From Thermoplasmata archaeon (GTDB lineage: Archaea > Thermoplasmatota > E2 > JACPAO01 > JAHFTW01), in the NCBI GenBank assembly GCA_034667725.1, contig JAXDQS010000010.1, positions 423,171 to 487,170 of the forward strand: a stretch of DNA of 64,000 nt. The letters run 5' to 3'. Below are positions 4,787-45,037 of the stretch, one piece after another. The notes under the pieces were generated by a model, which made no database searches, had not been told where the DNA came from, and worked only from the letters and a program-made list of their open reading frames with translations. Position 1 is the first letter of the stretch. Each line of letters opens with the position of its first letter. The position numbers were made by a program, and so were the translations under genes.

Positions 4787-6856
4787 GTGGCCAACCGCCT
4801 GGCGTCCGAGCCAAGCCCTTACCTGCGGCAGCACGCGGACAACCCGGTCGAGTGGTGGCCGTGGGGCGAGGCGGCGTTCGCGGAGGCGCGGCGGCGCGAC
4901 GTGCCGGTGTTCCTCTCGATCGGCTACGCGACCTGCCACTGGTGCCACGTCATGGCGCACGAGTCGTTCGAGGACGCCGAGGTGGCGCGCCGCATGAACG
5001 AGGCGTTCGTCTGCGTCAAGGTGGACCGCGAGGAGCGTCCCGACCTGGACGACGCGTACATGGCGGCGTGCCAGCTGATGACGGGGGCCGGCGGCTGGCC
5101 GCTCACGGTGCTGCTGACGCACGGCAAGAAGCCGTTCTTCGCCGGCACCTACTTCCCGAAGGAGACACGGCACGGCCGCATCGGCATGATGGACCTGCCC
5201 GGCCGCGTGGCCGAGGCGTGGCGGGCGCAACGCAAGGAGCTGGAGGCGCAGGCGGACCACCTCATGCTGCACGTGACGGGCGAGCCGCACGGCCATGACG
5301 ACGAGCCCGCGACGCAGAAGCCGGCGGCCTTGGACCTCGGCGTGCTGCGGCGCGGCGGCGACGCATTGGCGGCCCGCTTTGACCCCGAGCACGGCGGCTT
5401 TGGCGGGTCGCCCAAGTTCCCGTCCCCGCACATCCTGCTGTTCCTGCTGCGGCTGGCCGACCGCGGCGACGCCGAAGCCGAAGCGATGGTGGTGGCGACC
5501 TTGGAGAAGATGGCCGCGGGCGGCGTCCGCGACCACCTCGGCGGCGGCTTCCACCGCTACAGCACCGACCCCGAGTGGCGCCTGCCGCACTTCGAGAAGA
5601 TGCTGTACGACCAGGCGATGCTCGCGATGGCGTACGTCGAGGCCCACCAGCGCACCGGCCGCGCCGGCTTCGCCGAGGTGGCCCGCTCGACCCTGGACTA
5701 CGTGCTGCGCGACCTGCACGACCCCGCCGGCGGCTTCCGCTGCGCCGAGGACGCCGACTCCGAGGGCGAGGAGGGCACGTTCTACCTGTGGCGGCGCGAC
5801 GAGATCCTGGCGGCGCTCGGCCCGCGCGACGGCGCCGCGTTCTGCCAAGCCTACGGCGTCACCGCCGAGGGCAACTTCCTCGACGAGGCCACCAAGCGCC
5901 GCACCGGCGCCAACGTGCTGCACCGCGTCGGCGACGTCGCCGGCCTGGAGGCGGCGCACGCCCGGCTTGCCGCCGTGCGCGCCAAGCGCGAGCGCCCCCT
6001 GCTGGACGACAAAGTGCTCACCGACTGGAACGGCCTCGCCCTGGCCGCGTTCGCCAAGGCCGCCGTGGCGCTCGCGGAGCCGCGCTACGCCGAGGCCGCC
6101 ACGCGCGCCGCCGCGTTCCTGCGCGACAAGATGCGCCAGCCCGACGGGCGGCTCCGGCACCGCCACCACCACGGCCAGGCCGACGAGGTCGCGTTCCTCG
6201 ACGACCACGCCTTCCTGCTGTGGGGCTTGGTCGAGCTCTACGGCGCCACCTTCGACGCCGCGCACCTGGCCTGGGCCGTCGAGGTCGCGGGCCAACTGGA
6301 GGCGCGCTTCCTGCACCCCAGCGGCGCGTTCCAGCAGGCCCCGAAGGACGCCGACGAGCTGGGGGCGGCCCGCCGCGAGGCCTACGACGGCGCCCTGCCG
6401 AGCGGCAACTCCGCCGCCGCCTACGCGCTCCACAAGCTCGGCCTGCTCACGGGCGAGCCCCGCTGGACGCGCCTGGCCAACGGCGTGGCCGATGCGTTCG
6501 CCGCTGGCCTGGCCGCGTCGCCGCCCGCCTACGCCATGATGCTGTGCGCGCTCGACCTCGCCCTCGGCCCGACGCGCGAAGCCGTCGTGGCCGGGACCGG
6601 GCCGGACGCGGACGCGATGGTGCGCCTGCTGCAGGCCGGCCACGCGCCGCGGACGGTGGTGCTGCGCGCGACGCCCGCACTTGCCAAGGCCGCGCCCTGG
6701 ACGAAGGAGCACCTGGCGCGCGGCGGGGCGGCGACCGCCTACGTCTGCGAAGGCCACGCCTGCAAGGCGCCGGCGACGGACCTCAGGCAGCTGCGGGAAG
6801 CCCTTGCGGGTCCGGCAGCGCGCCCCACTCCACCATCTCGGCCGCAAGCCGGCTGA
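4787..6856 (+). CDS. YyaL/SPATA20-like thioredoxin-domain protein (DUF255)
   Basis: [37 protein letters not shown]; GTG start. Confidence 0.92.
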
Positions 6857-7211
6857 CCCGGCGCTGGATGTCGTCGCGCAGGAAGCGCACGGTCTCGTAC
6901 TCCAGGTTGGCGGGGTCATCGAGCGGCCAATGCTCGGTGACCGGCAGGTCGGGGTCGGTGGCGGCGACCCCCGGCCCCATGCTGATCACGCGCTCGTAGC
7001 GCGGCAGGTCGCCGAACTCGACGTGGCGCGGCCGCAGCCCGCTGATGTCGATGCCGCGCTCCTGCATCGCAAGGACGGCGCTGGGCGCCACCGCCCGGGC
7101 CGGCATGGTCCCGGCGGAGTCCGCGTCGAGGCCGAGCGCCCGCGCGAAGCCGACGGCGATCTGGCCGCGGCACGAGTTGCCCACGTCCACGAAGAGCACG
7201 CGATGGGGCAT
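6783..7211 (-). CDS. ArsC/LMW-PTP-fold protein with Cys-to-Asp P-loop
   Basis: [26 protein letters not shown]. Confidence 0.8.
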
Positions 7212-7366
7212 GACCCGCGTTTGCACCGGGACCGTCTTGATGCTTTCGGCCAGAGGGCGCGAAGGTCGCGGCGCGGCGGCCGGTTCCGTGGCCCCGTTGT
7301 CCCTTTGTGTGCATCGGTTCACCCTTGGCTACCGGTCCTTCAAGTCGCGCGGGGCGTGGCCGCGGC

Positions 7367-7975
7367 ATGGACCTGCGGCCGGAGGCCTCCGAGGCGGCCG
7401 GGACGTTCTTCCTGATGCTGGCAGGCGGCGCAGCCATCCTCCAGGGCCTTGGGGCGGACGCCGTCGCGTTGGCCTTCGGCGGCGTCGTCCTGGTCCTCGT
7501 CTACGCCTTGGGCCCCGTCGGCGGCGCCCACTTCAACCCGGCCGTCACGCTCGGGTTCGCGGCCACCCAACGCTTCCCCTGGCGCCGCGTGCCCGCCTAC
7601 CTGGCCGCCCAAGGCCTCGGCGCCCTCGCCGCCTGCCTCTTGCTCTTGCCGCTCGCGCCCAGCCTGGCGCCGATCGTCGTCCCCACGCCAAGCCTTGCGC
7701 CGGCCCTGCTGGCCGAGGCCGCGGGCACCTTCCTCTTGGCGCTCGTCATCGCGGCGGTCGCCAAGCGGAGCGACGCCGGCCTGGCCATCGGCGGCGCCGT
7801 CGCCGTCGCGGCCCTCGCCTTCGGCCCCTTCGGCGCCGGCGTCAACCCGGCCCGCGCCCTCGCGCCCGCCCTCGTGGCGGGGGCGTGGGGCGGCCTGTGG
7901 CCTCATCTGGTGGCGCCGGCCTTCGGCGGCGTGGCCGGCATGGCGACCTGGACCCTGCTGGAGGCATGGCGATGA
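7367..7975 (+). CDS. Aquaporin/MIP channel, probably arsenite-permeable (AqpS-like)
   Basis: HFNPAVT and GVNPARA motifs; ATGA overlap with arsC. Confidence 0.85.
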   Translation: MDLRPEASEAAGTFFLMLAGGAAILQGLGADAVALAFGGVVLVLVYALGPVGGAHFNPAVTLGFAATQRFPWRRVPAYLAAQGLGALAACLLLLPLAPSLAPIVVPTPSLAPALLAEAAGTFLLALVIAAVAKRSDAGLAIGGAVAVAALAFGPFGAGVNPARALAPALVAGAWGGLWPHLVAPAFGGVAGMATWTLLEAWR

Positions 7976-8388
7976 CGTTCCGCGTCCTGTTCGCTTGCGT
8001 CGGCAACTCCGCCCGCAGCCAGATGGCGCAAGGCTTCGCGCGCCACCTCGGCGGCGCCCAGGTCGAGGCCCGCAGCGGCGGCAGCGTCCCGTTGGGGCAT
8101 GTCCTGCCGGAGGCGGTCGCGGTGATGCGGGAGCGCGGCATCGACATCTCCCAGCACGCGAGCCAGGGGTTCGACGAGGCCTGGGTGCGCGAGGCGTGCG
8201 ACCTGGTGGTGACGATGGGCTGCGGCGACGACGCCTGCCCCGCCTTCGCGGGGAAGCCGATGGAGGAGTGGGCGCTGCCCGACCCGAAGGGCCAGCCCAT
8301 CGCGGCGTTCCGGGCGGTGCGCGACGACATCGAGCGGCGGGTGCGGGAGTTGTTGGAGAAGAGGAAGAGGCCCAGCGCAGGGAACTAG
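7972..8388 (+). CDS. arsC: Arsenate reductase (LMW-PTP fold, thioredoxin type)
   Basis: CVGNSARSQ P-loop and MGCGDDACP resolving cysteines. Confidence 0.88.
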   Translation: MTFRVLFACVGNSARSQMAQGFARHLGGAQVEARSGGSVPLGHVLPEAVAVMRERGIDISQHASQGFDEAWVREACDLVVTMGCGDDACPAFAGKPMEEWALPDPKGQPIAAFRAVRDDIERRVRELLEKRKRPSAGN

Positions 8389-8423
8389 CAGCAGAAGTCG
8401 CCGCAGGGGCACTCAGGACCCAT
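8385..8423 (-). CDS. 12-aa Cys-rich peptide MGPECPCGDFCC (candidate metal/metalloid-binding micropeptide)
   Basis: ATG at 8423, TAG at 8387-8385; GGAGGTG SD at 8435-8429, 5 nt upstream; not in the ORF track. Confidence 0.6.
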   Translation of the reverse strand: MGPECPCGDFCC

Positions 8424-8443
8424 CAAGACACCTCCAAGATGGG

Positions 8444-8465
8444 TTCAACGGTTGAAGCGCTTAAG
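8444..8465. promoter_or_regulatory. Palindrome TTCAAC-G-GTTGAA plus TATA-like CTTAAG in a divergent promoter
   Basis: Perfect 6-bp inverted repeat between the sORF and the HxlR gene. Confidence 0.4.
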
Positions 8466-8482
8466 GTGCAAAGTTTGTATCC

Positions 8483-8842
8483 ATGCCCTTGCTTCACCGG
8501 AGTGAAGTGGCCCGGCTCCCCGTCCGCAACGACTGCATCTGCACCGTCGGCGGCCTCATCGACCTCGTCGGCAAGAAGTGGACGATGTGCATCATCGTGA
8601 CCCTGGGCAACCGCCCCGCCATCCGCTTCAACGAGCTGCGCGACACCTTGGTCGGCATCAGCCCGCGCACGCTGTCCGAGACCCTCAAGGCGCTGGAGTC
8701 GGAAGGCCTGGTGCGGCGCGAGGCGTTCGCCGCCATCCCGCCCCGCGTCGAGTACCGGCTCACCGACGAAGGCGCCAGGCTGCGCGAGGCGGTGCGGCCG
8801 CTGATGGAGTATGCGGCAGGAAGGCCTGGGGCAGTCTGCTGA
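8483..8842 (+). CDS. HxlR/DUF24-family winged-helix regulator
   Basis: LVGKKWTMCI, RFNELR, ISPRTLSETLKALE, PPRVEYRLT; N-terminal DCIC. Confidence 0.9.
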   Translation: MPLLHRSEVARLPVRNDCICTVGGLIDLVGKKWTMCIIVTLGNRPAIRFNELRDTLVGISPRTLSETLKALESEGLVRREAFAAIPPRVEYRLTDEGARLREAVRPLMEYAAGRPGAVC

Positions 8843-8846
8843 ACGG

Positions 8847-8999
8847 GCGTGGAGGGTCGCGCGTCGGCGCGCGCCGAACGCGAAGCGGAGGCGATGGGTG
8901 GGTGGCTCGCGGAGCGAAAGCCACCCGCCAAGGGGTCCTAGGGGCGAAGCCCCTAGATGGGGTGCGCGGCTGGAAGGCCGGGGGCCGTCTGCTGAACGG
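8847..8999 (+). repeat. GNA-hairpin element followed by a recoded duplicate of the HxlR 3' end
   Basis: Hairpins GGGTGGCT..AGCCACCC and CTAGGGGCGAAGCCCCTAG; 8966-8999 matches 8813-8846 with 3 synonymous changes. Confidence 0.85.
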
Positions 9000-9010
9000 T
9001 CTGCTGACGA

Positions 9011-9553
9011 TCAGGCGTTCAGGACCACGAGCTCGGGCTTCTCCACCCGCAGCTCCTTCGCGAGCTTGCGAATCCGCTTCTCGCAGTCGTCGCGCATCTG
9101 GCGGTAGGCCTCAAGCGGCAGGCCCTGCGGGTCCAGGAGGTTCCACTCCAGGACGTTCTGCTGGCTGCGCCACGGCTTCGGCAGCGAGTCGCCCATGGTG
9201 ATGACGCGGTCGAACGCCTCCAGCCGGGTGACGTCGAGCGGCTTCGGGCGGAAGTGCGCGATGTCGATGCCCTGGTCGGCCATGACGGCGACGGCCTCGG
9301 GGGCCACCCGGGTCCCGGGGAAGGTGCCGGCCGACTCGGCGTGGAAGCCGTAGATGGTGGCGTAGGCCTGCGCGACCTGGCTGCGGGCGGCGTTGCCGAC
9401 GTCCACGAACAGCAGGCGGTACTGGCGGTGCTTCTCGCGCTGGACGTTGCCGGGCGCCGCGTCGCGGCCACGGAACGGGGCAAGCAGGGCGTCGAACGCG
9501 CCCCCGAAAAGGCCCCGGCGGGCAGGCTGGGCGGCGGGCTGGGCGTCGGTCAT
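9011..9553 (-). CDS. Second ArsC/LMW-PTP-fold protein with Cys-to-Asp P-loop
   Basis: LLFVDVGNAARSQ, ESAGT, EWNLLDP. Confidence 0.8.
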   Translation of the reverse strand: MTDAQPAAQPARRGLFGGAFDALLAPFRGRDAAPGNVQREKHRQYRLLFVDVGNAARSQVAQAYATIYGFHAESAGTFPGTRVAPEAVAVMADQGIDIAHFRPKPLDVTRLEAFDRVITMGDSLPKPWRSQQNVLEWNLLDPQGLPLEAYRQMRDDCEKRIRKLAKELRVEKPELVVLNA

Positions 9554-9696
9554 GGCGCTCGTCCAGCCAGCCCCCGCAGGCAAAAACGTATCGGAGGTGG
9601 CCTGCCGCCGCGTTCACGCCCGATTTCTTCCACCGCTGCTCGGCAGGTCAGTCTCCGTGCCCACCATTTCTTACGTCAAACCCGCTTTTTTCCCCC

Positions 9697-11787: not shown

Positions 11788-13008
11788 TCAGTCCACGTAG
11801 CCCGAGCTTCCCTTCGGCCCCAGCCACGACCCGTGGTAGCCCGCGTCCTCCGCCCCGACCGCCCACTTGGTGGCCAAGAGCGGCTTGAAGGTGTCCACCA
11901 TGACCGCCAGCTCGTCCGTCCGGTCATGCCCGAACGACGCCTCGTAGCGGCCGGGCTGCGGCGCGTGCGGGACGCCGGCGGGGTGCAGGCTCACGGAGGC
12001 GGGCCCGACGCCCTTGCGGCTGGTGAAGTTGCCCTCGACGTACCACAGCACCTCGTCGCAATCGACCGAGGAGTGCGGGTAGGGGCACGGGATCGCCTTC
12101 GGATGGTAGTCCACCTTGCGGGGCACGAACGAGCAGACCACGAAGGCGCCGCGGCCGCCGAGGAAGGTGGTGTGCACCGGTGGCGGCAAGTGGACGAGGC
12201 CGGTCTTGGGCTGGTAGTCGCGGATGCTGAACGCCACCGGGTACATGGCGCCGTCCCAGCCGACCACGTCGAACGGATGATGCGGCAGCACGCGCACGGT
12301 GTAGCGGTCGCCCCGCTTCAGGGTCACGCGCACGCGGCCCTGCTCGTCCATGTCTTCCTGGTTCGGCTCCGACAGCATCGACGGCCGCCGGAAGTCGCGG
12401 TGGCAGTACGGCGCGTCCATGGTGAGCTGCCCCGCCGGGTTGCGGAAGTTGGATGGGATGTCGAGCCCCGTGCGGCACTCCATCACCATGACGTGGGACC
12501 GCCCCGACAGCCGCAGCCGATGGATGAGCCCGCGCGGGATCCAGACGTAGTCGTGCCGCCGCACCTCCAGCGTGCCCAGCTCCGAGTCGAGCGTGCCGGC
12601 CCCTTCATGCAGGAACAGCAGCAGGTCGCCGTCGCCGTTCTGGAGCAGCCCCGAGTCCTGGATGGTGGGCTCGCTGGTGCCGATGCGGACGTCGTCGTTG
12701 CCGCACAGCACCCGCAACGACTCCCACAGCCGCCCAGCGCCGGCGACACCTGGGGCGCGGAAATGGCGCCGGCGCAACAGCGGGTCGGGGACCGGCTCGA
12801 AGGTGTCGCGCACCGGGCTGGGCTCCTGGGCCACCTCGCGCGCCGGGTTGTTCTTGCGGTACGCGATGGCGTAGGAGCCGTCGAAGCCCTTGCGGGTCAT
12901 GCAGTGCTCGTAGTAGACGGGGCAGCCGTCGACGTCGTCGCCCTTGGCCCGGGGATGCTGGATGTGGTGCTTCGCCGGCACGGACCCGAGGCGGTGGTAG
13001 TCGAGCAT
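11788..13008 (-). CDS. hmgA: Homogentisate 1,2-dioxygenase
   Basis: HHPFDVVGWDG, VHLPPPVH, PYPHSSVDCDE, HPAGVPHAP, ELAVMVDTF. Confidence 0.92.
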   Translation of the reverse strand: MLDYHRLGSVPAKHHIQHPRAKGDDVDGCPVYYEHCMTRKGFDGSYAIAYRKNNPAREVAQEPSPVRDTFEPVPDPLLRRRHFRAPGVAGAGRLWESLRVLCGNDDVRIGTSEPTIQDSGLLQNGDGDLLLFLHEGAGTLDSELGTLEVRRHDYVWIPRGLIHRLRLSGRSHVMVMECRTGLDIPSNFRNPAGQLTMDAPYCHRDFRRPSMLSEPNQEDMDEQGRVRVTLKRGDRYTVRVLPHHPFDVVGWDGAMYPVAFSIRDYQPKTGLVHLPPPVHTTFLGGRGAFVVCSFVPRKVDYHPKAIPCPYPHSSVDCDEVLWYVEGNFTSRKGVGPASVSLHPAGVPHAPQPGRYEASFGHDRTDELAVMVDTFKPLLATKWAVGAEDAGYHGSWLGPKGSSGYVD

Positions 13009-13067
13009 TGGCGCCCCCGCCATGCCCCCGTGGACCTTAAGGCAGCGCGGCAAGTCGCGGCCCTGCC

Positions 13068-14354
13068 ATGCTTGACATCCGCCTCCTGCGCGAGACCCCG
13101 GACGTGGTGCGCGCGGACCTCCAGAAGCGCGGCCGCGACGCCGCCGTGGTGGAGCAGGTGCGCGGCCTCGACGCCCAGTGGCGCGAGGGGCTTTCCAGGA
13201 TGGAGGCGTTGCGGGCGGAGCGCAACCGCAGCGGCAAGGCCATCGCCGAGGCCAAGAAGGCGGGGCAGGACGCCAAGCCCGTGCTCGAGCGCATGGCCGC
13301 CGTCGGCGCGGAGCTGGCGGCGCTGGAGAAGTCGGTGCCCGACGCGGAGAAGGAACGTGACGGGCTCCTGCGGACCATCCCCAACCTCATGCACCCGTCG
13401 GTCCCGGTCGGCAAGGACGACTCCGAGAACGTCGAGATCCGGGCGTGGGGCGGCAAGCCGAAGCACCCGTTCGCCGCCGTGAGCCATGTGGACCTGCTGG
13501 AGTCGCTGGACGTGGCCGACCTGGAGCGGGCGGCGCGCGCGGCGGGGGCCCGGTTCTTCTACCTCAAGGGCGACCTCGTCCTCTTGGGCCGTGCGCTGGA
13601 GCTGTTCGCGTTGCAGCACCTGGCGAAGAAGGGCTTCACCGCCATCGAGCCGCCCTACATGCTCCGGCGCGAGGCCATGGAAGGGGCGGTGGACCTCGCC
13701 GACTTCGAGTCCGTCATCTACAAGGTCGAGGCCGAGGCCAAGGAGCCGCCGCTCTACCTCATCGCCACCTCCGAGCACCCCATCGCCGCGATGCACATGG
13801 GCGAGATCCTCGACGACAAGGCGCTGCCGCTGCTCTACGCCGGCGTGTCGCCGTGCTTCCGCAAGGAGGCCGGCGCCCACGGCAAGGACACCAAGGGCAT
13901 CTTCCGTGTCCACCAGTTCAGCAAGGTCGAGCAGTTCGTCTACTGCAAGCCCGAGGACTCCTGGCGCATCCACGAGGAGCTGGTCCGGAACGCAGAGGAG
14001 CTGTACCAGGCGCTTGGCATCCCGTACCGCGTCGTCAACATCTGCACCGGCGACCTAGGCTCCATCGCGGCCAAGAAGTACGACATCGAGGCCTGGATGC
14101 CGGTCCAGCAAGCCTACCGCGAGGTCGTGTCGTGCAGCAACTGCACCGACTTCCAGGCCCGCCGCTACAACACCCGCAGCCGCGCCAACCCGGGGGACCC
14201 GACGGCCATCGTGCACACCCTCAACTCGACCGCCATCGCCGTCCAGCGCACCTTGGTCGCGATCCTGGAGAACTTCCAGCAGGCGGACGGCACCGTGGCG
14301 ATCCCCGAGGTGCTGCGGGCGTACGTGGGGAAGGACAAGCTCGCGCCCAAGTGA
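13068..14354 (+). CDS. serS: Serine--tRNA ligase
   Basis: MLDIRLLR, IATSEHP, CFRKEAG, EVVSCSNCTDFQAR, HTLNSTAIA. Confidence 0.97.
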   Translation: MLDIRLLRETPDVVRADLQKRGRDAAVVEQVRGLDAQWREGLSRMEALRAERNRSGKAIAEAKKAGQDAKPVLERMAAVGAELAALEKSVPDAEKERDGLLRTIPNLMHPSVPVGKDDSENVEIRAWGGKPKHPFAAVSHVDLLESLDVADLERAARAAGARFFYLKGDLVLLGRALELFALQHLAKKGFTAIEPPYMLRREAMEGAVDLADFESVIYKVEAEAKEPPLYLIATSEHPIAAMHMGEILDDKALPLLYAGVSPCFRKEAGAHGKDTKGIFRVHQFSKVEQFVYCKPEDSWRIHEELVRNAEELYQALGIPYRVVNICTGDLGSIAAKKYDIEAWMPVQQAYREVVSCSNCTDFQARRYNTRSRANPGDPTAIVHTLNSTAIAVQRTLVAILENFQQADGTVAIPEVLRAYVGKDKLAPK

Positions 14355-26163: not shown

Positions 26164-27648
26164 ATGCGCGCGTTCGCGGCCATCCTCCTCTTGGCCTTCG
26201 TGGCGTCCTCCGGCTGCATCGGCGACGGCGACGACACCTCCACCACCCAGCCTCCTGCGGCCCAGCCCGGCTACGCGCTCGACTGCGCCATCTCCAACTG
26301 GGAGGAGCCCTGCCTGGCGCGCGCCAGCCCCAACAACGCCACCAGCAAGGCCGAGGTCGACGTCGCCGTCAACCCGACGAACCCGGACAACGTCTTCGTG
26401 GCCTCCAAGGACACCGACCCGCTCGCCTCGGACGGCTGCGTCTGGGCGGTCGGCCAGTCCACCATGGACGGCGGCCGCACCTGGAAGACCACCTACGTGG
26501 GCGGCAAGACGGCCGACCGCCAGCCCGGCGACCTCCTCTACGGCTGGAAATGCATCACCGACCCCATCCTCGCCTTCGGCCCCGACGGCACGCTGTACTA
26601 CTCGCTCCAGGTCTACCAGGCCAGCCCCCGCACCGGGCCGCTTGCGGGCCTCCCCATCGAGACCGGCGGCATCATGGTCACGGCGGTCTCGCACGACGGC
26701 GGCGCCACCTTCCCCGACATGGTCGTGCTGCACGCGGGCGACAACAACTACGTGTTCCACGACTACATGCACATGGGCGCGTCGCCGACGACGGGCACCG
26801 TGTTCACCGTCTGGAACCAGCTCACCCTCGCCACCATCCCCGCCCTCGGCGCGGTCGCCGGCGAGTCCATCCCGGTCCTGGTGGCAGTCGAGAAGGGCTC
26901 CGACACCGCCCGCCCCCCGGTCTACCTGGTGCGCCGCGACGGCAGCCCGAGCCCGCCCAACCTGGACGCCAGCCTCGGCGAGTCCAGCCTCGTGGTCGGC
27001 GCCGACGGCACGGTCTACGCGTTCCTCGGCGGCTTCAACTCCCCCAACGCGGCCTACCTCTCGACCTCGACCGACGACGGCATGACCTTCACCGAGCCGA
27101 CGCGCGTGTTCGGCTTCACCCCGATGGACCCGATGTCCAACGTCAGCTTCCGCCACGGCACCGTGGTCGAGCTGGCCGTCGACAACTCGGCGGGCGGCCA
27201 AGGCTGCCTGCACGCCGTCTGGGGCGGCAAGGAGGAGGGCACCGTCGGCCCGTCCGACGTCTACGCCCGCCGCAGCTGCGACAAGGGCGCCACCTGGACC
27301 GAGCCCGTGCTGGTCAACGCCAACACCCGCGGCGACGGCCAATGGATGCCCCGCGTCAGCGTCGACGGCCGCGGCACCGTCCACGCCGTCTACCTGACCC
27401 GCCACTACGGCGAGCCCTTCGTGGACGCGGAGCACGCCTGGAGCACCGACAACGGCACCACCTGGCGCACCGAACGCCTCACCGCCACCAGCTTCGACGG
27501 CGACCTGGGCATCCACCAGGACGGCTTCCCGTTCCTGGGCGACTACATCGGCATCGCCTCGACCGGCGACGTGACCTACATGGGCTTCCCGTCGACGGTG
27601 ACGGGCCGCGCCGAGATCGCGGTGGCCAAGACCGCCTGGCACGACTGA
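26164..27648 (+). CDS. Secreted lipoprotein, sialidase-like beta-propeller (BNR/Asp-box)
   Basis: Lipobox SSGC; repeated S/T-x-D-G-G-x-T-W/F; FLGDYIGI. Confidence 0.8.
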   Translation: MRAFAAILLLAFVASSGCIGDGDDTSTTQPPAAQPGYALDCAISNWEEPCLARASPNNATSKAEVDVAVNPTNPDNVFVASKDTDPLASDGCVWAVGQSTMDGGRTWKTTYVGGKTADRQPGDLLYGWKCITDPILAFGPDGTLYYSLQVYQASPRTGPLAGLPIETGGIMVTAVSHDGGATFPDMVVLHAGDNNYVFHDYMHMGASPTTGTVFTVWNQLTLATIPALGAVAGESIPVLVAVEKGSDTARPPVYLVRRDGSPSPPNLDASLGESSLVVGADGTVYAFLGGFNSPNAAYLSTSTDDGMTFTEPTRVFGFTPMDPMSNVSFRHGTVVELAVDNSAGGQGCLHAVWGGKEEGTVGPSDVYARRSCDKGATWTEPVLVNANTRGDGQWMPRVSVDGRGTVHAVYLTRHYGEPFVDAEHAWSTDNGTTWRTERLTATSFDGDLGIHQDGFPFLGDYIGIASTGDVTYMGFPSTVTGRAEIAVAKTAWHD

Positions 27649-27720
27649 CGCCGGGCCCTAGGGCTGCGTTCAAGTCTTGACAAATAGGCTCAAGTGCCCC
27701 GGCGGCTCCTTCCCGGCTGC

Positions 27721-28392
27721 ATGACGCGCGCCCTCCTGCTGCTCGCCACCGCCCTGCTCGTCCTGGCCCCCGTCGCCAGCGCCCACACCACCGTCACCAG
27801 CGCCGACGGCAAGGTCCGCATGGTCGTCGGCCTCCTGAACGAGCCGGTCGTCACCTACAGCAAGACCGGCCTCGACGTCTGCTTCACCAACAACACCGCC
27901 GCCCGCGAGCCGCTCACCGTCAACCCCGGCGACCTCACGGCCACCCTGGTCAGTCCCGGCGGCAAGACCCTCCAGCTCCCGCTGCGGACCCAGTTCGGCC
28001 GCGCCGGCTGCTACCAGTTCGAGGAGCCGTTCATCCTCACCGAGCCCGGCCAGTACGTCGTGGACCTCGTCGGCACCGCCAGCGGCTCCGCGCTCAACGC
28101 CCAGGACGTCAAGGCCGGCGGCTCGGTGCTGCCCCAGGGCAACATCACCTTCCCGGCCGACGTGCCGGACCTCGCCGTCCTGGAAAGCAGGGTCGCGGCC
28201 ATGCAGGCCCAGATGCAGGCCATGAACCAGACCCACGCCACCAAGGTGCAGTCGATGGAGTCCCGCATCAAGGCGCTGGAGGCGAAGCTTGCAGACGAGG
28301 ACAGCAAGGGCGCCCCCATGCCGACGGGCGTCTTGGTGCTCGCGATGGTGCTGGGGGCGGCCATGCTGGCCCGCCGCCGCGCCGCGCCGTGA
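27721..28392 (+). CDS. Secreted protein with C-terminal TM anchor and basic tail
   Basis: Signal peptide ending ASA-H, coiled coil, hydrophobic tail plus RRR. Confidence 0.75.
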   Translation: MTRALLLLATALLVLAPVASAHTTVTSADGKVRMVVGLLNEPVVTYSKTGLDVCFTNNTAAREPLTVNPGDLTATLVSPGGKTLQLPLRTQFGRAGCYQFEEPFILTEPGQYVVDLVGTASGSALNAQDVKAGGSVLPQGNITFPADVPDLAVLESRVAAMQAQMQAMNQTHATKVQSMESRIKALEAKLADEDSKGAPMPTGVLVLAMVLGAAMLARRRAAP

Positions 28393-34764: not shown

Positions 34765-34898
34765 ACGCGAAGCGAAAGCCCGCAGGGCTTTCGCGAACGG
34801 GTTGCGATGCGAAGCGAGCAACCTTCAGCGCCCTAGCCGGCTGGGGGTCCGGGGCGCGCAGCGCCCCGGCTCGCAGGCGGACAGGCGGAGCCTGTCCG
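34765..34898 (+). repeat. GNA-triloop hairpin element (REP-like)
   Basis: Four hairpins with C-GCA/GAA/GGA-G loops; GCGAAGCG motifs. Confidence 0.8.
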
Positions 34899-39359: not shown

Positions 39360-39462
39360 TCAGTCGACTAGCAGGCGGGCGCCGGCGCAGTGGGACGGGC
39401 CGGCCTGCGGCCGAGCCCTATGCACCCTTCCGCCGCCCGGGCCGTGGGCGACCTCGCTTCGC
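39360..39462 (-). repeat. GNA-hairpin element followed by a recoded duplicate of the rps15 3' end
   Basis: 39360-39388 matches 39463-39491 with 2 synonymous changes. Confidence 0.85.
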
Positions 39463-39894
39463 TCAGTCGACCAGCAGCCGGGCGCCGGCGCGGGTGTAAT
39501 TCCACGCCTCGGGCAGCTCGCCGCGCGACTGGTAGTACTTGGCGAGGCCGCGGATGCGGGCCTCCATCAGCTCCAGGCCGCGCAGGTTGTGCAGGTCGCG
39601 CGAGTTGCCGGCCAGGTGCTCCTGGAGGTGGATGGCGCGCTGGACCAGGTTCTGCAGGTCCTGGGGCAGCTTGCCGGAGATGCCGGCGTCGCGCATGATC
39701 TGGACGATCTTCTTGCCGGTGAGCTCCTGGACCGACGGGATGCCGTAGGAGTCGCGCAGGATGAGGCCGATGACGGCCGGCTGGCGGCCCTGCTTGGCCA
39801 ACTCCACGACCTTCGCCTCGGCCTCGCGGGGCAGCATGGGGACCCAGGACGGGGCGTTCTCGCGGACGGGCTTCGAGCTGGCGTGGCCGGACAT
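39463..39894 (-). CDS. rps15: 30S ribosomal protein S15 (uS15, S15P/S13e)
   Basis: IGLILRDSYGIP, LPQDL, DLHNLRGLELMEARIRGLAKYY. Confidence 0.95.
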   Translation of the reverse strand: MSGHASSKPVRENAPSWVPMLPREAEAKVVELAKQGRQPAVIGLILRDSYGIPSVQELTGKKIVQIMRDAGISGKLPQDLQNLVQRAIHLQEHLAGNSRDLHNLRGLELMEARIRGLAKYYQSRGELPEAWNYTRAGARLLVD

Positions 39895-41801: not shown

Positions 41802-43499
41802 ATGTTGGGCCACAATCCTTTCCTGGAGGACCCCGTGCCCGCCGCAATGGCGCGCGCCCAGCCCGAGCAGCATGTCATCCCGTTCAACGAGCAGCTCCTG
41901 AAGCCCGCGGCCACGCCGGCCCCTTCCAAGGCCGAAGCCGGGCTGGTGCGCCCCCTTGCCGCGAAGCCGCGCGCCAGGCCGGCCACCGTCCCCAAGCCCC
42001 GTCCCCCACGCGCCGTCTTCGTCGTCCACGGCATGGGCCAGCAGGTCCCGTTCGAGACCCTCGACCTGGTCTACCAAGGCCTGCAGCACGAGGAGACCGC
42101 CCGCGGCGACGGCCCGCCCGCCCTACTGACGCCCAAGCCGGTCGAGGAGGTCATCGCGGGCACCAAGGTGCGGCGCCTCGAGGTCACGCTGGCCGCCGGC
42201 ACGCCCCAGGAACGCCAAGTCCACCTCTACGAGGGCTACTGGGCGCCGCTCACCGAGGGCCGCGTGACCCTGCGCGACGTCGTGGCGTTCCTGGCAAGCG
42301 GCGCCGGCAACGGCCTCCGCAACGCCTTCGGGCGGCGGCAGAAATGGCGGTTCGACAAGTTCCGCCAACCCTGGGTCTTCGGCCTGCCGCTCGTCCAACT
42401 GCTGGTGACGTCGCTGGCGCTCGCCAGCCTGCTCGGGCTCGCGGCCGCGTCCACCGCCACCTTCGCCGCCGCCGTCACCGGCACCGGCATGCCCTTGGGC
42501 ATCGTCTCGGACCTGACCTGGCTGGCCGCCTTCATCCTGGCCCCCGCCATCGCCATGGCCGTCCTCATGGGCGCCTCCTCCGCCGGCAAGCGCCTGGGAT
42601 GGCGCAAGCGCCTGGCGCGGCGGGTCCGCGTCGCCGAGGACAACCGGCGGCCGATGCCGCGCGTGCCCGCCCTCGCCCTCGTGCTCGACGCGCTCGGGAT
42701 GCTGGCGCTCCTGGCCACCGTGCTGGCGGCCGCCGCCGTCCCCTTCCTGGCGGCCTGGGCGGCCCTGTCCTGGGCCAAGGGCGCCTCCTGGCTTCCCATG
42801 CTCGACATCCGGGCCTCGTTCGTCGTCTGGGGCCTCCTCGTCCTGCTGGTGGCCGTCGCCCGCCGCGTCCTCGTCCAGACCCTCGGCGACGTCGCCGCCT
42901 TCGTCAACACCCACAAGCTCGACCGCTTCAACGAGCTGCGCGACGAGATCAAGCGCACCGTCCGCAAGGTCGCGATGGCCGTCTACGACGCCAAGGACGC
43001 CCAAGGCGGGCCCCGCTACGACGCGGTCTGCATCATGGGCCACAGCCTCGGCAGCGTCGTCGCCTACAGCACCCTCAACGACCTCGTCAACGAGGACGAC
43101 GACGTCGAAGGCCAGTCGCGCGGCGTTCTCGCCCGCACCCCGCTTCTGCTGACCTTCGGGTCGCCGCTTGCCAAGACCTCCTTCATCTACGGCCTCCAGC
43201 GCAGCAAGACCAGCGCCACCCGCGAGGCGCTCGCCGGCCTCGTGCAGCCCCTCATCCAGAAGTACGACTACCGCACCATGGAGTGGATCAACCTGCACGC
43301 CCGCGCCGACATCATCAGCGGCCGGCTCCGCCCCGAGTACGACGACGAGGAGGCCGCCTTGGACCACGAGAAGGAAGGCAAGGTCGCCAAGCGCGTCCAG
43401 GACCTGCGCGACCCGCACGCCACCACCCCGCTGCTCGCCCACAACGAATACTGGCGCAACCCGCTGCTGTGGCGGGAGCTGCGCAGCCGCCTGGTTTGA
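41802..43499 (+). CDS. Alpha/beta-hydrolase with inserted TM helices
   Basis: VHGMGQQ, GHSLG, TFGSPL, terminal HNEYW; central hydrophobic block. Confidence 0.75.
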   Translation: MLGHNPFLEDPVPAAMARAQPEQHVIPFNEQLLKPAATPAPSKAEAGLVRPLAAKPRARPATVPKPRPPRAVFVVHGMGQQVPFETLDLVYQGLQHEETARGDGPPALLTPKPVEEVIAGTKVRRLEVTLAAGTPQERQVHLYEGYWAPLTEGRVTLRDVVAFLASGAGNGLRNAFGRRQKWRFDKFRQPWVFGLPLVQLLVTSLALASLLGLAAASTATFAAAVTGTGMPLGIVSDLTWLAAFILAPAIAMAVLMGASSAGKRLGWRKRLARRVRVAEDNRRPMPRVPALALVLDALGMLALLATVLAAAAVPFLAAWAALSWAKGASWLPMLDIRASFVVWGLLVLLVAVARRVLVQTLGDVAAFVNTHKLDRFNELRDEIKRTVRKVAMAVYDAKDAQGGPRYDAVCIMGHSLGSVVAYSTLNDLVNEDDDVEGQSRGVLARTPLLLTFGSPLAKTSFIYGLQRSKTSATREALAGLVQPLIQKYDYRTMEWINLHARADIISGRLRPEYDDEEAALDHEKEGKVAKRVQDLRDPHATTPLLAHNEYWRNPLLWRELRSRLV

Positions 43500-43813
43500 G
43501 GCGGACCCGCTTCATGCCGGCAGCGGCCCCCCACGGCGCTGCGCGCCGCGGGGCCCGCTTCGCGGCGCGCGCTCGCTGCGGCGCCGGGCATGGCGGGACG
43601 TGCCTCAATGCGCCAAGGAAGCCTCGCTGCGCTCGGCTTCACTTCTCGGGCACTTTGAGGCGGACCCGCTTCATGCCCGCCGCTGCCCCCCACGGCGCTG
43701 CGCGCCGCGGGGTCCGCTTCGCTTGCGCCCGCTTCGCGGCGCGCGCTCGCTGCCGCTTCGGTGCTGTCGCGCGCGCCTTCGGTGCCGAGGTCGCGCGCTC
43801 GCTGCGCTCGCGG
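43495..43813 (-). repeat. Two-unit array: hairpin element plus recoded copy of the 3' end of gene 43814-45037
   Basis: 43639-43686 encodes AAAGMKRVRLKVPEK*; 43495-43527 encodes AAAGMKRVRLK; each is preceded by CGGCGCGCAGCGCCG-TGGGGG. Confidence 0.85.
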
Positions 43814-45037
43814 CTACTTCTCGGGGACCTTCAAGCGGACGCGCTTCATCCCCGAAGCGGCCTTCTGCCACCCCTCAACACGCTTGGCCGTGATCTTGGT
43901 GCCCAGCACGTTGGTCTCGAGGCTGTCGAGGTAGGCGTTGACCTGGTCGGCGACGGCCTCGCCGCTGCGCTTCTTCAGTTCGGCGATGCCTTGGATGCCG
44001 GCGCGGGCCATGGCCTCGGCGTACTGCTTGCCGACGCCCTTGACCTTGATGAGCTCGGCCATGGACTTCCATTGCTCGACGGTCTTGACGGGGACCTGCA
44101 TGCGGCGGGCGAGGTCTTCGGCCTCCTCGTAGGCGAGGCGGGCGGTGGTCTCGATGCCCAGGTCGCGCAGCTTCTGGCCGTAGATGCGGCCGATGCCTTC
44201 GATCTCCTCGACCTCGTGGGTGTCGCCGGCGTAGTCGTAGTAGGCGCGGGTCTCGCTGGCGGCCTTGGGCTTGCGGGCGCCGGCGATGGTGGCGTCCAGT
44301 TCCTGGAGGTAGGCGCGGGAGCCGCCCGTGGTCGTGGTGACCTCGACGGTCTGGGTGGTGGTGGAGCTCGACTCGCTGGACTCGGCCATGAGCTCCTGGG
44401 CGGCGGACTCCTCGGGGAACAGGCGGGCGCGCAGGTGCTCCGGGATCTTCTTGGGGTCGACCTCGGTCTTGGGCTTCTGGCTGTTCTTGATGGGCAATTC
44501 CTTCTTCTGGGCCTCGGGCGGGCCGGCGATGAGGATGCGCATCTTGAGCTGGGTGCCCTGGTTGTCGATCGGGATGTAGCTGTTGGTGTAGACCGCGGAC
44601 TCGACGGTGCGGGGGAAGACGTAGGGGACGACCTTGGTCTTGCGGTCCTTCTTCTCCCAGGCGCGGTACATGTGCGGGATGGTGGGGAGGTTGTAGACCA
44701 CGATGTCGGGGCCCTTGCCAAGGTTGTCGGGCTCGACCAGGCTGTTCTCGTAGGCCTCGAGGCGGGCGCGCTCGGCGGCCAGGGCGTCCTCGTCGGGGTT
44801 GAGGGCGGCGCGGCGCTTGCGCTCCTCGGAGCTGCGCACCAGCAGGAGCAGGAACAGGACGATGACGACCAGCAGCAGGATGACGGCCGTCACCAGCACC
44901 CACAGGTTCACTTCCTTGAGGAACGGGATGCCGGGGTCGTTTTGCGACTTGGCGTAGAGGAGGAACAGGAAACCGAGGAAGGTCAGCACGGCAAGCGTGA
45001 ACAGGACAGTGCCAAAGATGCGCTTGCCGCTTGCCAT
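43814..45037 (-). CDS. Membrane-anchored protein with C-terminal helix-hairpin-helix (DUF4332-like) domain
   Basis: Two TMs; EEIEGIG..KLRDLGI; KVKGVGKQYAE. Confidence 0.75.
   Translation of the reverse strand: MASGKRIFGTVLFTLAVLTFLGFLFLLYAKSQNDPGIPFLKEVNLWVLVTAVILLLVVIVLFLLLLVRSSEERKRRAALNPDEDALAAERARLEAYENSLVEPDNLGKGPDIVVYNLPTIPHMYRAWEKKDRKTKVVPYVFPRTVESAVYTNSYIPIDNQGTQLKMRILIAGPPEAQKKELPIKNSQKPKTEVDPKKIPEHLRARLFPEESAAQELMAESSESSSTTTQTVEVTTTTGGSRAYLQELDATIAGARKPKAASETRAYYDYAGDTHEVEEIEGIGRIYGQKLRDLGIETTARLAYEEAEDLARRMQVPVKTVEQWKSMAELIKVKGVGKQYAEAMARAGIQGIAELKKRSGEAVADQVNAYLDSLETNVLGTKITAKRVEGWQKAASGMKRVRLKVPEK

Follow-up and report, generated by a model that had tools for sequence, protein, structure and literature searches.

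Integrative elements flanked by att sites carry direct repeats of the 3' end of their target, restore the gene that they enter and build arrays by repeated entry (tandem accretion), and their gene-less derivatives, the cis-mobilizable elements (CIMEs), have lost the integrase (PMC5704250). The tRNA-linked repeats (TLRs) of E. coli are short non-coding units behind tRNA and rRNA genes that exactly repeat the 3' end of the upstream gene in their final 18-19 bp, and they occur in arrays of 1-5 (PMC8144298). At the yeast FBA1 gene, WHO elements replace the 3' end of their target and the old ends are stacked downstream (bioRxiv 10.1101/2020.01.20.913210), and in the Thermoplasmatota the casposons of Aciduliprofundum boonei insert at a tRNA 3' end with a duplication beside the palindrome of the T-loop (PMC5137440). 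Small, gene-less, hairpin-rich and intergenic multicopy DNA is represented by miniature inverted-repeat transposable elements (MITEs), by repetitive extragenic palindromes and bacterial interspersed mosaic elements (REP/BIME) and by palindromes derived from IS200/IS605. Here we examine the end of a gene for a transcription regulator of the HxlR family in a 64,000-nucleotide stretch of archaeal DNA (the window; C10:423171-487170), which belongs to a 2.32-Mb Thermoplasmatota metagenome-assembled genome (MAG) of 71% GC and 90% completeness whose nearest named relative is a soil Thermoplasmatota MAG. The last codons of this gene recur downstream of it, and we propose that the repeat was left by a small non-coding cassette that lies directly behind the stop codon. 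The parts of the locus are as follows.

8483..8842, plus strand: intact gene for an HxlR-family transcription regulator of 119 aa (open reading frame; PF01638, 80.4 bits).
8813..8846, plus strand: in-use gene end, encoding AAGRPGAVC, with the stop codon TGA at 8840-8842 and ACGG after it; holds the rare codons GCA, CCT and GCA.
8847..8965, plus strand: cassette of 119 nt without a gene; core at about 8850-8956 and a 9-nt tail, ATGGGGTGC, at 8957-8965.
8858..8893, plus strand: hairpin 1 (8858-8871) and hairpin 2 (8872-8893, with a GCGAAGC mini-hairpin at 8880), from the RNAalifold consensus with compensatory changes.
8897..8929, plus strand: hairpin 3, variable in sequence among copies with its pairing kept; GCGGAGC and GCGAAAGC lie in the loop region.
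8938..8956, plus strand: terminal hairpin CTAGGGGCGAAGCCCCTAG, almost invariant across the family (family alignment, RNAalifold).
8966..8999, plus strand: displaced gene end with the same peptide and stop and the codons GCT, CCG and GCC; continues into the resident downstream flank.

The in-use copy at 8813-8846 (GCGGCAGGAAGGCCTGGGGCAGTCTGCTGAACGG) and the displaced copy at 8966-8999 (GCGGCTGGAAGGCCGGGGGCCGTCTGCTGAACGG) are identical at 31 of 34 positions, lie 153 nt apart, and comprise the last nine codons, the stop codon and the four bases that follow it. All three differences (GCA/GCT, CCT/CCG and GCA/GCC) are at third positions and silent, with AAGRPGAVC* read from both copies, which bears out the original prediction of a gene end duplicated with three silent changes. 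The duplicated part, residues 111-119, lies past the Pfam domain (residues 28-111). A repeat search extends the repeat to 44 nt at 86% identity (8803-8846 and 8956-8999). However, because the additional 10 nt have three non-silent mismatches and resemble the tails of other cassette copies, we take the 34 nt as the true repeat. A chance origin is excluded, as a degenerate 24-nt pattern matches only these two copies in the window (and none of 100 shuffles), and as the locus scores 25 in a genome-wide scan described below in which the maximum among 1955 permuted controls is 19.

The insert is one copy of a repeated module with conserved structure. BLAST and nhmmer find eight full and four partial copies in this genome, at 77-87% identity, with a core of approximately 105 nt that folds into four hairpins; compensatory changes are seen at 15 of the 33 predicted pairs among eight copies (RNAalifold). 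The terminal hairpin is situated 0-9 nt ahead of the displaced copy in every family member that has one. At the HxlR locus CTAGGGGCGAAGCCCCTAG is followed by ATGGGGTG (8957-8964) immediately 5' of the displaced copy, and the tail of the cassette ends in ...CCCCTAGATGGGGTGC; this junction had been pointed out from the letters alone, together with a further 9-nt GTCTGCTGA at 8999-9007, and all of these parts are present. The targets of the core family are HxlR, four other protein genes, and the 3' ends of tRNA-Tyr and tRNA-Lys. In 7 of 10 family copies the insert lies between long direct repeats of its own target sequence (49, 44, 43, 34, 24-25, 15 and 11 nt), and in all six copies placed behind a gene or tRNA the orientation is that of the target. 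The 119-nt insert contains in-frame stops and no open reading frame, and no Rfam covariance model matches positions 8300-9200 at E <= 1. Terminal inverted repeats are absent from the core, the best match between its first 30 nt and the reverse complement of its last 30 nt being 4 nt. Searches for a longer or autonomous version by BLAST and nhmmer gave only copies of about 105 nt or shorter in this genome, which is 90% complete, and BLAST did not find the core family in 31 other genomes of the same taxonomic family, nor in any viral contig.

The same layout, consisting of an in-use end, a stop codon, a hairpin core on the sense strand and a displaced end, is found at no fewer than 22 protein genes and no fewer than three tRNA genes. 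For the protein genes, the last 48 nt of 1955 open reading frame ends with high G+C at third codon positions were compared without gaps with the region 25-480 nt downstream, and as a control every end was also paired with the downstream region of another gene. There were 26 real against 3 control hits at a score of >=16, and 19 against 0 at >=20. Curation then removed two low-complexity chance hits, one hit in a repeat array and one at the ribosomal stalk genes P0/P1, leaving 22 loci, three of them in the window. The hit at the stalk genes (C4:13090, at about 12800-13400) was rejected as a cassette, since the adjacent P0 and P1 genes have a C-terminus in common that shows 6 silent differences; this paralogous tail is itself a useful false-positive control for gene-end scans. 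Hairpin families other than the HxlR core show an equal layout, and the inserts measure 46-140 nt in the whole class and 74-136 nt at the window loci, the other two of which are as follows.

39360..39491, minus strand: second window locus, with the in-use end at 39463-39491, a 74-nt hairpin cassette at 39389-39462 and the displaced end at 39360-39388.
43495..43854, minus strand: third window locus, an array 3' of a DUF4332 gene (43814..45037).

The two ends at 39360-39491 match at 27 of 29 positions and both of their differences are silent. The array at 43.8 kb runs in the order E0 (43816-43854, with the stop codon at 43814-43816), a 136-nt cassette, E1 (43639-43679), a second cassette, and E2 (43495-43518), a partial end of 24 nt. 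E0 and E1 both encode GMKRVRLKVPEK* although they differ at 8 bases over 13 codons, all silently, including a Leu TTG/CTC and a TAG/TGA exchange of the stop codon. The likeness between the HxlR locus and the junction at 43.6 kb, noted in the original prediction, is thus real and extends to the whole architecture. A single large element reaching from 8.9 to 43.6 kb was considered and ruled out, as there is no repeat common to both sites and each has its own local duplicate.

Over the 22 loci and 255 codons, silent changes between the copies number 46 and replacement changes 11. Of the replacements, nine are found in the three leftmost codons of the repeat, and elsewhere the ratio is 36:2. By codon position the base differences number 8, 7 and 48 at positions 1, 2 and 3 respectively, and silent first-position changes (AGG/CGG, TTG/CTG) are among them. 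If the copy in the gene had taken silent changes only while the displaced copy drifted, with about 27% of random changes silent by our estimate, some 44% of the differences would be silent. This null of decay in place is rejected (p = 1.5e-8 overall, p = 3e-11 in the interior of the repeats). The right edge of the repeat coincides exactly with the stop codon in 7 loci, lies within 2 nt of it in 13, and ranges from -10 to +7 nt in all 22. Because young, near-identical repeats show this edge too, it is a real junction and not a loss of similarity past the coding region. The youngest loci are those at C3:550222-550418, at C10:187675-187884 and at tRNA-Tyr (C3:223630-223850). Where the edge lies some codons 5' of the stop, the cassette provides the final codons and the stop codon, as at C3:174620, where a TAG lies within the 5' end of the core, and at C9:695.

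A further property of the cassettes is strictly one-stranded. All 34 occurrences of the motif GCGNAGC in the 22 cassettes (2.4 kb, several sequence families) lie on the gene-sense strand, and the antisense strand has none. This is a density of 14.2 per kb, whereas the genome as a whole has 0.95 per kb. In the HxlR cassette, mini-hairpin motifs lie at four places (8880, 8909, 8914 and 8944). GCGNAGC and GCGNNAGC form extraordinarily stable DNA mini-hairpins and are known from primase-recognition sites of single-stranded phage origins (PMC13037366). As the bias is confined to one strand, it suggests that what matters is a single-stranded form, be it folded DNA or an mRNA 3' tail.

A plausible explanation, and one that we consider probable though by no means settled, is that the integrating cassette brings along its own copy of the gene end, as far as the stop codon, and that this copy recombines with the resident end. 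The cassette would then not simply have cut its target with the gap filled in. Entry would proceed by recombination of the carried copy with the resident end in a Campbell-type or att-type manner, whether site-specific or homologous, leaving one working end in the gene and pushing the other downstream, and repeated entry could build arrays. Silent-only differences would be expected if the copies are alleles of close lineages, or if excision and re-entry are frequent; both copies could then be under coding selection, because transfer between close lineages or excision and re-entry would let either one serve as the gene end. A more specific proposal, which we put forward only tentatively and hold to be possible rather than likely, is that these are a new class of gene-less archaeal mobile cassettes, each of which finds its way to one gene or tRNA and inserts at the stop codon by means of a silently different copy of the target's end. 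Such cassettes would move or act as a folded single strand and be integrated by a host enzyme or by an enzyme of another kind. If they home in this way, past invasions would be recorded in the stack of displaced ends.

Several observations weigh against the proposal of a carried gene end. Three of the 10 family copies have no detectable flanking repeat, and several of the repeats are identical or differ by one base, which plain target-site duplication explains equally well. The proposal also does not explain how one core family would come by a separate gene-end copy at every new target. Neither a free or circular cassette nor a third copy of a gene end at a remote site was found, and a degenerate 30-nt pattern that accepts either HxlR allele matched nothing in 185,579 species genomes or in the JGI metagenomes. 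In the same genome, at its 90% completeness, there is no match to Cas1 (PF01867), RVT_1 (PF00078), TnpB (PF07282), Y1/HUH (PF01797), IS110 or Piwi/Argonaute; control genomes matched in the PF01797 search and the host genome did not. The only recombinases found are a serine recombinase of 283 aa with Resolvase and Recombinase domains (127-129 bits; C3:556689-557540, L049:1465-2316), which is approximately 6 kb from two cassette loci at C3:549958-550418, and a weak tyrosine-recombinase domain (PF00589, 24-27 bits) at C10:~27530-28006 (L028), and neither is linked to the cassettes. Finally, the HxlR locus considered alone is weak evidence, as 3 of 3 silent differences have a probability of about 0.09 under the null; because this single locus is only mildly unusual, it is the class as a whole that gives the silent pattern its weight.

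Transposition of a MITE-like element, with two nicks 11-95 nt apart, gap fill-in that yields long target-site duplications of variable length, and subsequent drift in place, would account for one core family occurring at many targets, each with a duplicate of its own local sequence, for near-identical duplicates (44/44, 29/29, 48/49 and 47/48), and for a cassette-borne target copy not being seen free. Loosely controlled casposase reactions do give flanking repeats of 3 to 1802 bp (PMC5137440). However, such drift predicts about 44% silent differences, where 46:11 are seen overall and 36:2 away from the left edge, and the insertion points cluster at the stop codon, where insertion further downstream would be expected to be neutral as well. 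With terminal inverted repeats lacking and neither a transposase nor Cas1 found, we regard this explanation as rather unlikely. Less probable still, in our judgement, is that the displaced copy is a functional recognition or guide part that is kept constant while the in-use end escapes by silent mutations, in a logic of homing or immunity with the enzyme supplied in trans. This would fit differences that are nearly all silent (some loci are nearly saturated at silent sites while their peptides agree, as with the 8 silent changes in the 13 codons of E0 and E1), the conserved terminal hairpin that always adjoins the displaced copy, and the odd codons in the in-use end at HxlR, and the WHO elements offer a precedent in that they exchange the FBA1 3' end for a cleavage-resistant version (bioRxiv 10.1101/2020.01.20.913210). 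It is opposed by the many loci with identical copies, which would be self-targets, by in-use copies that are not consistently unusual in codons (7 against 12 loci, see below), and by the failure to find TnpB, Cas, Argonaute or another guided nuclease in the genome.

The repeats could also have arisen with no mobility at all, if replication stalls at the stable hairpins and the adjoining gene end is duplicated by template switching. Mini-hairpins of this kind are extremely stable and block polymerase in vitro (PMC13037366), and both the E0-core-E1-core-E2 array and a 14-nt tandem at 8986-9009 resemble products of slippage. Yet 12 orthologues of the 43.8-kb gene and four of HxlR have neither hairpins nor duplicate, from which it follows that the core itself arrived at these sites, and stalling leaves unexplained the core at unrelated loci, the silent-only differences and the fixed orientation. 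We consider it very improbable. An artefact of assembly has to be considered because the genome is a MAG, but we give it practically no credence, as the copies differ at 3 of 34 positions, the locus is well inside a 487-kb contig, and the architecture recurs at 22 loci with graded divergence; as the core copies are at most 87% alike, there is no long exact repeat to mislead an assembler.

Returning to a cassette that brings in its own gene end, the relatives bear on the age of the insert and on which copy is the original. The four HxlR orthologues from the genus have approximately 66-71% protein identity, keep an AAGRPGAVC-like motif, continue for 4-19 residues beyond AVC and are followed by other genes. 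The HxlR protein here ends straight after AVC, whereas the orthologues (L013, L021, L022 and L024) extend further, and the short end may itself have been brought by an earlier cassette. As the stop after AVC and the next four bases are common to both copies, both come from this or a very close lineage. Among 12 genus orthologues of the 43.8-kb gene there is no downstream duplicate and the C-terminal peptides are variable, whereas both copies here encode one and the same peptide. Because genus orthologues lack the duplicates, the inserts are not ancient shared features, although some copy pairs are strongly diverged at silent sites.

It had been predicted that the displaced copy may be the original gene end, on the grounds of its more host-like codons, and at HxlR this is upheld in so far as the displaced duplicate lies behind the insert and its codons are the more host-typical (log-likelihood under genome usage -14.7, against -19.3 for the in-gene copy). 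The rare codons of the in-gene end are GCA, used twice, and CCT, which make up 3.4% of Ala codons and 7.8% of Pro codons respectively, and codons ending in A or T number 5 among the last 10 of the gene and 5 among the preceding 109 (Fisher p = 3e-4). The comparison with orthologues that the prediction had called for also agrees with the displaced copy, since the proline codon is CCG in 4 of 4 and the last alanine is GCC or GCG and never GCA. However, these relatives are distant and do not represent empty sites, and codons ending in G or C are the default at 71% GC. A true empty HxlR site was not found, the genus orthologues being too distant and not syntenic. Nor does the codon rule hold beyond this locus, as the in-gene copy is less host-like at 7 and more host-like at 12 of 19 informative loci, and codon usage is thereby ruled out as a general marker of the resident copy. 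If a circle with one copy recombined inside the repeat, the resulting copies would be hybrids and no consistent codon direction would be expected.

The immediate surroundings of the HxlR gene include two further features.

8999..9007, plus strand: partial third copy, GTCTGCTGA (VC*), 9 nt, from the sequence.
9011..9583, minus strand: convergent gene of the low-molecular-weight protein tyrosine phosphatase (LMW-PTP)/ArsC-like type (open reading frame; PF01451).

With the 153-nt insert-plus-duplicate removed, the stop codon of the convergent gene would lie 15 nt from that of HxlR; the spacer is now 168 nt. The effect on HxlR itself is small, as the protein is the same and the spacer to the convergent gene has gone from 15 to 168 nt. 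The partial third copy belongs to a tandem with a period of 14 nt, in which GTCTGCTGAACGG (8985-8998) is followed directly by TCTGCTGACG and which consists of the last HxlR codons and the stop; the tandem at 8986-9009 may be a scar or remnant of an older cassette event, or a product of slippage. The neighbourhood (6783-9583) holds three genes of the LMW-PTP/ArsC type, at 7972-8388 on the plus strand, at 9011-9583 on the minus strand, and another upstream.

Elsewhere in the window, at 34767-34885, mini-hairpins are clustered on the sense strand of an intergenic region, where GCGAAGC occurs twice beside GCGCAGC, GCGGAGC and the module GGGGGTCC..GGGGCGCGCAGCGCCCC. The cluster has no detectable gene-end duplicate and looks like a cassette whose repeat was lost or never made. 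At the tRNA-Leu(CAG) gene (C5:34506-34990, L069) the last 29 nt of the tRNA are present four times with three related inserts of about 105 nt between them, which are of a hairpin family other than the HxlR core. The array resembles the E. coli tRNA-linked repeats, and every insert includes 12-17 nt of the tRNA end in antisense (p < 0.005). Such a target-matched antisense arm is absent from the HxlR cassette (p ~1) and from 6 of 8 other cassettes (p ~0.35-1); among the cassettes tested it is present only in those of tRNA-Leu. A separate repeat of about 75 nt, TCTGTGGGAATCTTCCGAATCTG...CAGTGCTCGTCGCG, occurs at some 90 or more places in the genome, often in tandem arrays, with examples beyond the window at C7:17701-18089, C3:549985-550273 and C10:119009-119333. 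Two of its arrays have perfect direct repeats of the target, of 37 nt and 27 nt respectively, and long flanking duplicates are therefore not limited to hairpin cassettes. The 25-nt terminal module GGGGTCCNAGGGGCGAAGCCCCNNG is present in repeats of bacterial genomes too. These are an Anaerolineae MAG, where it forms a tandem array with a period of 152 nt (L051, 2980-3310), a Planctomycetota MAG, where it occurs on five contigs (including L054, L056, L065 and L066), and Streptomyces (L057 and L067). Its presence in bacteria may reflect convergence on a stable hairpin or a common module.

If the cassettes do carry their own gene-end copy, they would be the smallest known integrating elements, and would offer a way of inserting DNA harmlessly into essential genes in a phylum that has no genetic system. 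The idea is testable through three signatures, namely silent-only differences, a junction at the stop codon and one-stranded mini-hairpins. For annotation, short pseudo-ends behind archaeal genes and tRNAs should be taken as footprints of inserts and not as decayed genes.

None of the described systems matches these loci in full, and a search of full-text literature gave no description of gene-less archaeal cassettes of about 100 nt that duplicate the ends of protein genes. A diversity-generating retroelement is ruled out, as there is no PF00078 domain and the differences (A/T, T/G and A/C) are not confined to template adenines. Casposons have a fixed duplication of 14-15 bp, terminal inverted repeats and Cas1, and none of these is present here. 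The flanking repeats here are not of fixed length, at 11-49 nt in the core family and 22-95 nt in the class. MITEs, REP elements and IS200/IS605 derivatives have repeats that are short and fixed or absent, whereas repeats of 11-95 nt flank cassettes that lack terminal inverted repeats, stand strictly at the stop codon and in strict sense orientation, and for which no Y1/HUH transposase was found in the genome. Insertion of the IS200/IS605 type makes no target duplication, while 7 of 10 family copies have one. The WHO elements are eukaryotic and bring their own endonuclease gene, and the cassette here is without an open reading frame and many genes are targets. TLRs are resembled by the tRNA-Leu, tRNA-Tyr and tRNA-Lys loci described here, although TLRs are limited to tRNA and rRNA operons and their origin is unexplained, whereas our targets are mostly protein genes, with a duplicate that reaches to the stop codon and codon differences that are silent. 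Compared with att-flanked elements and CIMEs, which measure kilobases and have one target per family, the cassettes are 46-140 nt long, have no gene, and use six or more targets per core family, each with a gene-end copy of its own. The finding is best placed as a variation on a known principle, integration at a gene end with a copy that restores it, and suggests a mode of DNA insertion at gene ends that has not been described.

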